Notes under the pieces: generated by a model
What the model was told of the DNA's origin: nothing
The model's input: the letters and a program-made list of their open reading frames with translations, nothing else
Databases searched by the model: none
Shown here: piece after piece, positions 11,166-12,620 of the stretch
Layout of the letters: every line of letters starts with the position of its first letter
Position numbering within the stretch: the stretch's first letter is position 1
Source of the DNA: Amphiscolops sp. MND2022
Lineage: Eukaryota
Direction: 5' to 3'
Assembly (NCBI GenBank): GCA_964187785.1
Contig: OZ076409.1
Location: 46,068,001-46,132,000 of the forward strand
Length of the DNA: 64,000 nt
Made by a program: the position numbers and the translations under genes

Positions 11166-12620
11166 ATGGAGCGATTTTTGAGAGAAGCCATCACGAGATA
11201 TCTGACTGAAGGCGCTTTAGATGAAACAGTGCTCGATTCCAGAGATAAGCGTGAGGCTTTCAAAAAGAACTGCAGAAACATGAAGTTCGAGAGAGGCGTG
11301 CTATATTACCGAGGGCGGAGGAATGACTTCTTGCCAATTCCAACACCGGAGCAAGTGGATAATTTACTTTATAAAATCCACATCAAGAACTATAAAGAAG
11401 GAGAGAGCGGTATTGGGAAGAAGCATTATCGAGGCCTGCAGCTACATGTGGAGGCACTGTCAAATGCTGGGTGGGCATTTCCTATTGGTATGGGAGGACT
11501 GAAAGCAGTTGCGGAAGAGTAAGTGCATTTATTCGATGAGAAAAACCTATCTTATCTGAACAAAGAAAAAAAAATTTTTTTTGTTGTTTGTTGTTGTAAA
11601 AGAAAATGAAATAAGGTATGGTGTATGTGGTTGTCAGGTTTCTCAGGAATTGTCAAGAAAGCTACTTCGCGAGTGAAGAAGGGAGGAAAGTACAGAGGTA
11701 TTTGAGTGTTTCGTTGGAGCGGCGGATCGAACTCTGTAGTCAGTTCGATTATACCTGTGTATGGGAACCTCTATCAGCTTCACGAAGTGGAGAAGTGCCT
11801 GTCATTCTCGAAGAACCAGGACGCAAAGAACCTTTGGGGGTCCTTGCGGAGGTCGGAGGAGAATGCTTCTTCTCGAGCGTGTATTATTTGCTCTGTGGAA
11901 GAAAATCTGGTTAGAGAAATGAGAATAGGTGAAATGAGAAAAGTGAAAAAAAAGATAAAAGATAATCGAAAAAATGAATATTTTACATAGATCGAAAGAA
12001 TGCGACGGCAAGTCGTAAGTGCAAGGCTTTACGCGTGGCTGCAACGAAGGTGATGCAGACGGTGGAGTTCAAGGAGTACTGCAGAGAAACTCTGGGCATG
12101 GCACCCAACGACTTTATGGCTCAAGAGTGTGCGAAAGTGACGGCGAGCATCTCTGAGGCGGCCGTAAGTACCTGAATATGGGCGCGAGAAGGAGCCACAC
12201 GTTGTAAGGGTGGTGAGGATTCATTCATGATTTTAGATTCTAGCAACAGCATGGGTGTTACAAACGGACCTGCAAGTATACTGGCAATATTGGAACTTGG
12301 GCGGGTGGATCCGGTACAAATACGGACCTAAGAGTTCCGGTACAGGGGCTAGCTTTCTGTGCCACGCCATCCAGGGCAGCGAACGGTTCCGGACCCGCTT
12401 CCACTGCGAGCCATTGCCCCATTTTCCTGAGCCAGAGTAAGTAAACTTGAAAATTTACATGGAGAATCCGAGAGATTATTGCTGTTTCTAGAAAAATTGG
12501 GCAAAAAATTAACTTTATATTAGGTTGAAGACACCTGTGAGGGTGCGGAGCCCTGCTATAGAGCCGTGGGAAGAAGAGGAAGCTATGGGAGCATGTGGGA
12601 CTAGCGCTTCAAGCAGTTAG
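11166..12620 (+). CDS. Antisense spliced accessory gene: integrase-N-terminal-like domain plus OTU-like cysteine protease (364 aa; exons 11166-11518, 11638-11909, 11991-12163, 12237-12436, 12524-12620)
   Basis: Four GT-AG introns (three GTAAGT donors, one GTTAGA) give matching phases and one stop-free 1095-nt CDS with an ACCATGG start. OTU-like motifs in order: GGECFFSSVYYLLCG, ALRVAATKVM, AILATAWVLQTDLQVY, GGWIRY, FLCH, FHCEPL. Confidence 0.8.

Follow-up and report, generated by a model that had tools for sequence, protein, structure and literature searches.

An antisense four-intron gene with an integrase-like head and an OTU-like domain in a Gypsy-type retroelement of Amphiscolops with an env-like ORF

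In Amphiscolops sp. MND2022, a 64,000-nucleotide stretch of contig OZ076409.1 (assembly GCA_964187785.1, positions 46,068,001 to 46,132,000; hereafter the window) contains a complete Gypsy-type long terminal repeat (LTR) retroelement that carries a gene with four introns on the strand opposite to its own genes. On the evidence of its conservation, which is decisive, this antisense gene is real, protein-coding and under purifying selection. The C-terminal half of its 364-residue product is OTU-like, at the level of remote homology in profile comparisons, and its first 130 or so residues have the character of an integrase N-terminal region. It is probable, in our judgement, that the gene belongs to the retroelement itself, as an accessory gene encoding an OTU-like protease with an integrase-like head that acts for the element. 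Four other explanations are weighed below, beside the evidence that bears on each of them.

Structure of the antisense gene

The gene occupies positions 11166-12620 of the plus strand. An initial annotation, made from the bare sequence, had joined short plus-strand open reading frame (ORF) pieces through four GT-AG introns into a protein of 364 residues, and splicing of the exon coordinates confirms that model: the five exons add up to 1095 nt, a stop-free frame of 364 codons followed by TAG. Three of the four intron donors read GTAAGT and one reads GTTAGA, and the introns lie in phases 2, 1, 0 and 2. Exon 1 (11166-11518) begins with an ATG in the context ACCATGG, encodes residues 1-117 plus two nucleotides and holds the first half of an integrase-like HHCC domain, with the His pair at His72 (11379-11381) and His87 (11424-11426). 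Intron 1 (11519-11637, 119 nt, phase 2) separates this His pair from the Cys pair. The CxxC zinc position (Cys123, 11651-11653; codon 126, 11660-11662) is found in exon 2 (11638-11909), followed by a linker that varies and then by the OTU-like Cys box, GGECFFSS, which contains Cys194 (11864-11866). Intron 2 (11910-11990, 81 nt, phase 1) leads to exon 3 (11991-12163), which encodes the helical part of the OTU-like domain with its ..ALR.. helix. Intron 3 (12164-12236, 73 nt, phase 0) is followed by exon 4 (12237-12436), which provides the central helix ILATAWVL, strands and the His box FHCEPL, including His322 (12402-12404) and Glu324 (12408-12410). Intron 4 (12437-12523, 87 nt, phase 2) precedes exon 5 (12524-12620), which ends the protein with an acidic tail and contains the stop codon. 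The positions previously assigned to the Cys and His codons are correct. The exons have a G+C content of 0.42-0.55 as against 0.31-0.40 in the introns and flanks. An acceptor-like tttcag at 11154-11159 ends 7 nt before the start ATG and suggests that an untranslated 5′ exon may lie farther upstream.

The length of the reading frame alone is only moderately unusual and is a weak argument for a gene. When as many as four GT-AG introns, each 60-130 nt long, were allowed in the longest ATG-to-stop path, none of 60 dinucleotide shuffles (maximum about 985 nt) came up to the 1095 nt of the real sequence, and neither did any of 56 natural segments of 1455 nt taken from outside the element (maximum about 965 nt). 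That shuffled sequence reaches about 985 nt in so flexible a splice search is a point for the view that the frame is not protein-coding at all, having arisen by chance or survived from a nested insertion, with at most its antisense RNA of any importance; retroelements with antisense non-coding transcripts are known (PMC7264820, in excerpt). Against it stand the low ratio of nonsynonymous to synonymous substitution rates (dN/dS of about 0.1) and the third-position excess, exons that outdo introns in all 22 informative copies, a gene structure kept at 27-30% protein identity and the lack of flanking inverted repeats around the gene. Set against these, a non-coding origin is barely credible.

Conservation and selection

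Across the 1.07-Gb genome 51 places match the gene region, at identities that range from 100% to 65%. Conservation was assessed in a set of 32 copies, the window copy included, onto which the splice sites and coding sequence of the window gene were projected. Exons are more alike than introns in every one of the 22 copies that are less than 99% identical (for example, 66.6% versus 52.2%). Projection leaves every one of the four GT..AG pairs intact in 22 of the 32 copies, and in 14 the coding sequence so obtained is open and in frame; several copies that are 67% identical have exons of the same lengths as the window gene. Between subfamilies dN/dS is 0.10 (window versus L012) and 0.11 (L028 versus L031). 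Very close copies have values of 0.35-0.54, as expected for decay after insertion. In distant pairs the proportion of nonsynonymous differences is about 0.2 versus a saturated proportion of about 0.8 for synonymous ones. The conservation and dN/dS that the initial annotation had put forward as checks on its gene model are thus both as a functional gene would have them. The sequences GGECFFSS, AILATAWVL and HCEPLP are unchanged across nine aligned copies, and exon 4 is the best conserved part of the gene, with a mean column identity of 95% (13 copies).

The gene family is also deep. A distant exon-4 fragment searched against the genome gave 150 scored matches from among 233 candidates. Ten distant loci show the gene in its entirety, with proteins that are 27-30% identical and with the exon order, canonical splice sites and phases 2, 1 and 0 all kept, and additional diverged families have the same exon pattern. 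In the diverged relatives the H..H..CxxC pattern is complete, the Cys box reads LAEGGGKCWFS and the His box FHCEPI, and a Trp directly precedes the central helix (EPW, then MLGTA). It is because exons surpass introns in conservation, dN/dS is about 0.1 and the splice structure persists at 27-30% identity that the gene is taken to be real.

In the public protein collections searched, the family appears only in pieces. A profile of exon 4 run against 1.84 billion representative proteins returned 18 matches, 15 of which are fragments of 50-120 residues; the other three (P0009, P0011 and P0015) are long multi-stretch proteins and were set aside as likely repeats. A search with exon 2 for longer proteins yielded P0001 only, which is a read-through of intron 2. 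In each of two genomic copies (L072 and L066) a single intron, never both, can be read through in frame. No intron-free or spliced full-length form was found in the public proteins searched, which contain exon-sized fragments only, cluster members included.

Linkage to retroelements

The gene travels with its element. In 18 of 18 copies of pol with at least 91% identity the gene lies about 3.9 kb off in unchanged relative orientation, and matched pairs in the class of pol copies with 72-74% identity show the same spacing and orientation. Two diverged copies that were viewed with their surroundings are arranged as gag-pol-[antisense gene]-env with an LTR on either side, and in a distant family the gene follows, in antisense, an ORF that carries Integrase_H2C2 and rve domains. 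A nested DNA transposon was considered as the carrier of the gene and rejected; just A/T-rich inverted matches surround the gene and no terminal inverted repeats are present. Copies with 99-100% identity to one another have the four introns, as does the window element with its identical LTRs, so the introns pass through retrotransposition. They probably survive because they are antisense to the genomic RNA, which cannot lose them, and they would hence be recopied in each round of retrotransposition.

The OTU-like C-terminal half

The Pfam OTU family (PF02338) has a gathering score of 23.3 bits, and Pfam was run on contiguous pieces; in the window gene the domain is spread across three exons. 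The gene escapes standard domain scans and prokaryote-style gene calls because of this split. Since introns 2 and 3 interrupt the C-terminal domain, spliced models were built for profile-profile comparison. The OTU template consisted of nine segments from the same genome, each with a Pfam OTU match of E <= 0.0014 that in five cases exceeds the cut-off. The C-domain profile matches these nine segments with a probability of 92.7% (P 4.4e-7, score 48.3) over 126 columns that run from the Cys box to the His box, and the value is 93.3% when more families are added to the C-domain. Merging the OTU set with the family of L038, an unspliced OTU gene described below, raises it to 97.0% (P 1.2e-10, score 69.1). 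The significant alignments between the C-domain and OTU cover 113-129 columns. By comparison, reversed alignments score 10.8-11.0, none of 120 column shuffles exceeds 17.4 (probability below 1%) and the N-terminal domain scores 10.8 against OTU. Single exons find the appropriate halves: exon 4 alone matches eight OTU segments in the half with the His box (hhalign, 65.4%, P 5.9e-5), and exon 2 aligns best, locally, with the OTU Cys box (15 columns, P 0.0033). Searches of the spliced protein as a single sequence against the OTU ORFs of the genome gave a best blastp E of 0.002 (44 sequences) and phmmer E values of at least 0.077, and hhalign with low-diversity alignments gave a probability of 5.4%.

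Cys194 (in GG.C[FW]FS), His322 (in FHCEP) and Glu324 align with the catalytic positions of OTU and are kept in 12 of the 12 spliced models, which were drawn from the window clade and the diverged families. The H-C-E sequence is conserved in the family; the aligned OTU segments themselves have E, Q, D, S or N at the position two residues after the His. The OTU-like motifs that had been read by eye in the expected order therefore find support in profile-profile comparison for the Cys box, the LR helix, the central helix and the His box, with no OTU match in the Pfam and PDB searches. Another proposed motif, FLCH, does not hold up as a catalytic element, its His being Gln in diverged copies. The initial annotation had also cautioned that the Asp of the Cys loop and the usual Trp before the central helix were substituted; the Asp is indeed replaced, by Gly throughout, and the Trp is present in the diverged families.

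The gene of L038 (G000:C1:86414000-86433999; C1:86.4 Mb) is a sister to the window gene that has no introns. It is an unspliced HHCC-plus-OTU ORF of 347 codons that scores 27.2 bits against Pfam OTU (cut-off 23.3), and its family retains DGNC or NGNC in the Cys box. The ORF is antisense to, and convergent with, an ORF that carries DUF5641, Integrase_H2C2 and rve. Its host is a 7-kb Bel/Pao-like element with LTRs that are 97.7% identical, in which an env-like ORF was not seen. The start codon lies inside the 3′ LTR, and this position implies that the LTR of the L038 element may contain an antisense promoter. The L038-family ORF and the window protein match over their full length (probability 95.2%, P 2.5e-8, 256 columns); taken by part, the C-domains match at 79.8-84.4% and the N-domains at 19.9%. 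Public collections contain five relatives of the L038 ORF, and a protein atlas had no usable match for it.

The genome has further OTU ORFs. Some OTU domains are embedded in very long frames of 2244-2816 residues (for example, L036 and L042; C2:103.6-103.7 Mb and C1:3.6 Mb) that are possibly Helitron-like proteins, and other OTU ORFs measure 276-511 residues.

Several results weigh against an OTU assignment for the window gene. In Pfam, the five exon translations match no family at E <= 1, and the read-through fragments (P0001, P0002, L066:926-1492 and L072:228-725) match none at E <= 0.1. A genome-wide Pfam scan for OTU gave 23 matches with no copy of the antisense gene among them. Four profiles of the exons (A1-A4) searched against PDB sequences returned chance-level rows only, with no OTU entry at E <= 10. 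Among 832 sequences searched with a hidden Markov model (HMM) of the nine OTU segments, the spliced proteins reach E values of only 0.078-3.5 and are mixed with decoys, and with the window clade alone the profile-profile probability is 47.8%. The significant scores come from small alignments of our own making that include splice models, and four of the nine OTU segments are below the Pfam cut-off. Three of the splice models (L064, L067 and L077) are imperfect because those copies carry frame breaks. The AlphaFold2 model of the L038 ORF, built from six alignment rows, has a mean predicted local distance difference test score (pLDDT) of 34.4 and is unusable. Finally, the whole family has Gly (GGEC, GGKC or GGAC) where the Cys loop of OTU, DGNC, has its Asp.

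These results leave room for two other accounts of the C-terminal half. According to the first, the gene is a conserved accessory gene whose C-domain is some other Cys-His hydrolase or a new fold, and the profile matches reflect convergence of motifs. The uniformly negative Pfam, PDB and HMM-to-sequence searches and the unusable L038 model count in favour of such an account. It has difficulty with profile matches of 93-97% that are colinear from the Cys box to the His box and score 48-69 where the controls remain at or below 17.4, with exons 2 and 4 that independently match the proper OTU halves, and with homology over 256 columns to an ORF family that is above the Pfam OTU cut-off. We consider a non-OTU fold quite unlikely.

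The second account accepts the OTU-like fold and denies it cleavage. The protein would then be a pseudo-enzyme that binds ubiquitin or serves as a scaffold, or that acts solely through its integrase-like head. The change of the Cys-loop Asp to Gly in all members and the remoteness of the OTU profile match speak for it. The persistence of Cys194, His322 and Glu324 at 27-30% identity is hard to explain without catalysis, and the variation of the OTU segments themselves at the position two residues after the His also tells against it; loss of activity is accordingly an unlikely reading. An active OTU-like cysteine protease is the form of the C-terminal half that we prefer.

The integrase-like N-terminal half

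Residues 1 to about 130, to which the initial annotation had given no identity, are most likely a diverged copy of the integrase N-terminal region with its HHCC zinc module, as judged by profile comparison. The N-domain profile matches 26 integrase N-terminal segments, relatives of the pol of the window, with a probability of 93.9% (P 1.6e-7, score 46.2) over 102 columns. Among the controls, the reversed alignment reaches 14.0 and no shuffle exceeds 17.2. Nine of ten young copies, and the diverged families too, have the full set of H..H..CxxC ligands.

Here too there are points on the other side. The head is significant in one comparison only, and low-diversity alignments gave probabilities of 14%, 10.9%, 3.4% and 5.7%. 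The Pfam family Integrase_H2C2 (PF17921) has no match in the contiguous L038 ORF; neither exon 1 nor exon 2 of the window gene matches it, intron 1 splitting the domain. In the window copy the fourth zinc ligand is a Ser (11660-11662), where nine other copies with at least 98% identity have Cys.

An integrase-like head could also be the working part of the protein. It might compete with or bind the N-domains of integrase and in this way regulate integration as a decoy, setting the copy number or excluding rival elements, with the protease half being secondary. Truncated proteins encoded by an element can restrain that same element, as in the copy-number control of Ty1. The homology of the N-domain to the integrase N-terminal region fits this idea, as does the occurrence of the gene in many competing element families of one genome. 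It sits poorly with the finding that the best conserved part, exon 4, belongs to the protease half (95% mean column identity), and with a window copy in which one zinc ligand is gone and the protease motifs are all in place. A decoy role is for these reasons improbable.

The host element and neighbouring features

The host is a complete, young LTR retroelement of 14,211 bp on the minus strand. Its 5′ LTR (20110-20488) has 379 bp, is bounded by TG..CA and is 100% identical to the 379-bp 3′ LTR (6278-6656). The 5-bp target duplication GCACT is found at 20489-20493 and 6273-6277. A primer-binding-site-like tract that starts with TGG (TGGTGACAGG..) extends downwards from 20109, just inside the 5′ LTR, and a polypurine-like tract (..AAAAGCGGGGAG, in element orientation) at 6657-6672 lies just inside the 3′ LTR. 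The gag ORF (18678-19976, minus strand) has a weak DUF1759 match and a zinc knuckle. The pol ORF (13414-18696, minus strand) is convergent with the antisense gene and has, in Pfam, the domain order aspartic protease, weak dUTPase, RVT_1, RT_RNaseH (also RT_RNaseH_2), Integrase_H2C2 and rve. The dUTPase match, located between protease and reverse transcriptase (17870-18165, minus strand, residues 178-276), is below the cut-off with E 0.023 and 14.9 bits. The tail of pol past the integrase core (13414-14900, minus strand, about 490 residues) has no sequence match in Pfam or PDB.

The env-like ORF (7496-9796, minus strand, 766 codons) is divergent from the antisense gene, which is placed between it and pol. 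The topology of its product comprises a signal-like N-terminus, a hydrophobic stretch in the interior and a transmembrane segment at the C-terminal end, and there is no R-x-K/R-R site. No sequence match was found for this ORF in Pfam or PDB. Its language-model features are nearest to the Baculo_F and Fusion_gly clusters (0.95), with recognition below the threshold of the tool, and a relationship to F-type fusion glycoproteins is a lead only. Assignment of the element to Ty3/Gypsy, made by domain models, is based on the LTRs, the target duplication, the tracts that resemble a primer-binding site and a polypurine tract, and the Gypsy-type RNase H and integrase models. The earlier placement of the gene antisense inside a Gypsy retroelement is borne out by the Gypsy-type domains of pol and the identical LTRs, and its description as env-carrying finds a candidate in the env-like ORF.

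A second antisense ORF is possible upstream of the OTU-like gene, in the interval between it and the env-like ORF (10273-10689, plus strand). It encodes 138 residues with a Cys-rich start, one transmembrane segment and a Lys/Glu-rich tail, and coincides with a G+C-rich patch. In two diverged copies it is open, 48-50% identical over 77-79 residues and keeps its strand and order. The differences at the three codon positions number 6/4/14, 6/2/8 and 13/13/17.

In diverged families with the antisense gene, the last sense ORF before the gene ends in a macrodomain (L070:2306-3181 and L062:2298-3182, both minus strand, continuing in L073). The integrase ORF precedes this one and is in a different frame. 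The macrodomain is near human OARD1/TARG1 (4j5r_A, E 8.2e-23, 84.7 bits, residues 152-287 versus 11-143 of 146), and its match to Pfam Macro is weak (E 0.03-0.07). The pol tail of the window element (13417-14901) has no macrodomain match, and a literature search for macrodomains in the pol of LTR retrotransposons found nothing relevant.

Outside the LTRs, both flanks of the element contain arrays of 38-nt repeat units (1104-1795 and 23148-23395) and a 98-nt repeat that is 88% identical (3189-3286 and 23081-23178). A 237-codon ORF at 22461-23174 (minus strand) is likewise outside the element.

Proposed role of the gene

The gene is presumably transcribed from an internal antisense promoter located between env and the gene, and its transcript would be spliced at the four GT-AG introns. 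Residues from about 185 to 330 of the product would form an OTU-like papain-fold cysteine protease in which Cys194, His322 and Glu324 are likely catalytic. The integrase-like head may bring this protease to the integrase of the element, to the preintegration complex, or to DNA or chromatin. There the OTU-like domain could strip ubiquitin or a ubiquitin-like modifier from proteins of the element or the host, and the outcome would be protection from degradation or a weakened ubiquitin-dependent host response. A deubiquitinase function of this kind, which we infer from sequence, would provide a concrete link between retrotransposition and the ubiquitin system.

A wider scheme can be drawn from the same observations, although we hold it to be rather doubtful. 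Gypsy-type env-carrying elements and Bel/Pao-like elements may long have kept an antisense OTU deubiquitinase with an integrase head that rides with the integration machinery and strips a ubiquitin or ubiquitin-like mark from element or host proteins. Sister lineages would pair it with the TARG1-like macrodomain at the end of pol, and the two together would make a 'deubiquitinase plus ADP-ribose hydrolase' counter-defence kit that is convergent with positive-strand RNA viruses. Accessory genes are what make complex retroviruses complex, and if this scheme is true the antisense gene and the macrodomain kit would be the retrotransposon counterpart of retroviral accessory genes.

Comparison with known systems

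The known extra ORFs of LTR retrotransposons are mostly env-like, or antisense without recognisable domains. The window gene is an antisense gene with many introns, two domain families that can be assigned and strong purifying selection, and it is shared by deeply diverged families and by two types of element. Its closest companion in the genome is the L038 ORF, which resembles it in being antisense, convergent with the end of pol, inside the LTRs and of two-part layout, and differs from it in lacking introns, in its Bel/Pao-like host, in a start codon within the 3′ LTR and in keeping DGNC.

OTU proteases are used by RNA viruses, including the nairovirus L protein, arterivirus PLP2 and tymovirus PRO, to remove ubiquitin or ISG15. 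Like the window gene they are OTU-type proteins of selfish replicators, but they are domains of RNA-virus polyproteins, and the likeness is drawn here by description. A spliced antisense gene is known from a vertebrate retrovirus, human T-cell leukaemia virus 1 (HTLV-1), where the bZIP regulator HBZ is expressed from the 3′ LTR. HBZ is similar to the window gene as a spliced antisense protein gene of a retroelement, without any sequence relation. The antisense promoter of HTLV is noted in excerpts of PMC7264820.

That source, in the same excerpts, also describes conserved antisense ORFs between pol and the 3′ LTR of the plant LTR retrotransposons Grande (gene23), RIRE2 and Retand, which are present in most copies of a family, and a promoter of its own for the Grande ORF (PMC7264820). 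As far as the excerpts go, these plant ORFs have no likeness to known proteins and introns are not mentioned, whereas the window gene has an animal-like host, four introns and two assignable domains. Enzymatic genes have been captured elsewhere by retroelements: excerpts on bdelloid rotifer elements report ORF3s downstream of pol that encode a GDSL esterase/lipase and a DEDDy exonuclease (PMC5408684).

A full-text literature search found OTU in Ginger1 and Helitron-like DNA transposons only and not in LTR retroelements, its coverage being thin for subscription journals, Repbase reports and supplements. A term search of a recent survey of env-carrying Ty3/gypsy elements met no mention of OTU or of antisense genes (PMC13524379). 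We could not find an OTU-like accessory gene of an LTR retroelement described before; an earlier description is possible.

In Helitron-like elements OTU domains are recurrent and their role is unknown, according to excerpts of PMC11417382. There the OTU is in or beside the Rep-helicase protein of a DNA transposon (PMC11417382), while in the window it is part of the product of a distinct spliced gene, opposite in strand to the retroelement that carries it. The nearest described arrangement, by analogy, is the Ginger1 transposase. In the excerpts of its description (Bao, Kapitonov & Jurka 2010, PMC2836005), this protein has a Gypsy-like integrase with an H2C2 finger and a DDE core, then an OTU domain, and its gene has 0-4 introns. 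Both Ginger1 and the window gene thus combine an N-terminal region of the Gypsy integrase type with a C-terminal OTU in one protein, and introns occur in both (PMC2836005). Ginger1 keeps the DDE core and a GPY/F motif and is a cut-and-paste element with terminal inverted repeats (PMC2836005); the window gene has neither a DDE core nor flanking inverted repeats and is an antisense passenger of LTR elements. The two are likened here by description. The shared module nevertheless ties LTR retroelements to the OTU-bearing DNA transposons of the Ginger1 and Helitron-like kinds.

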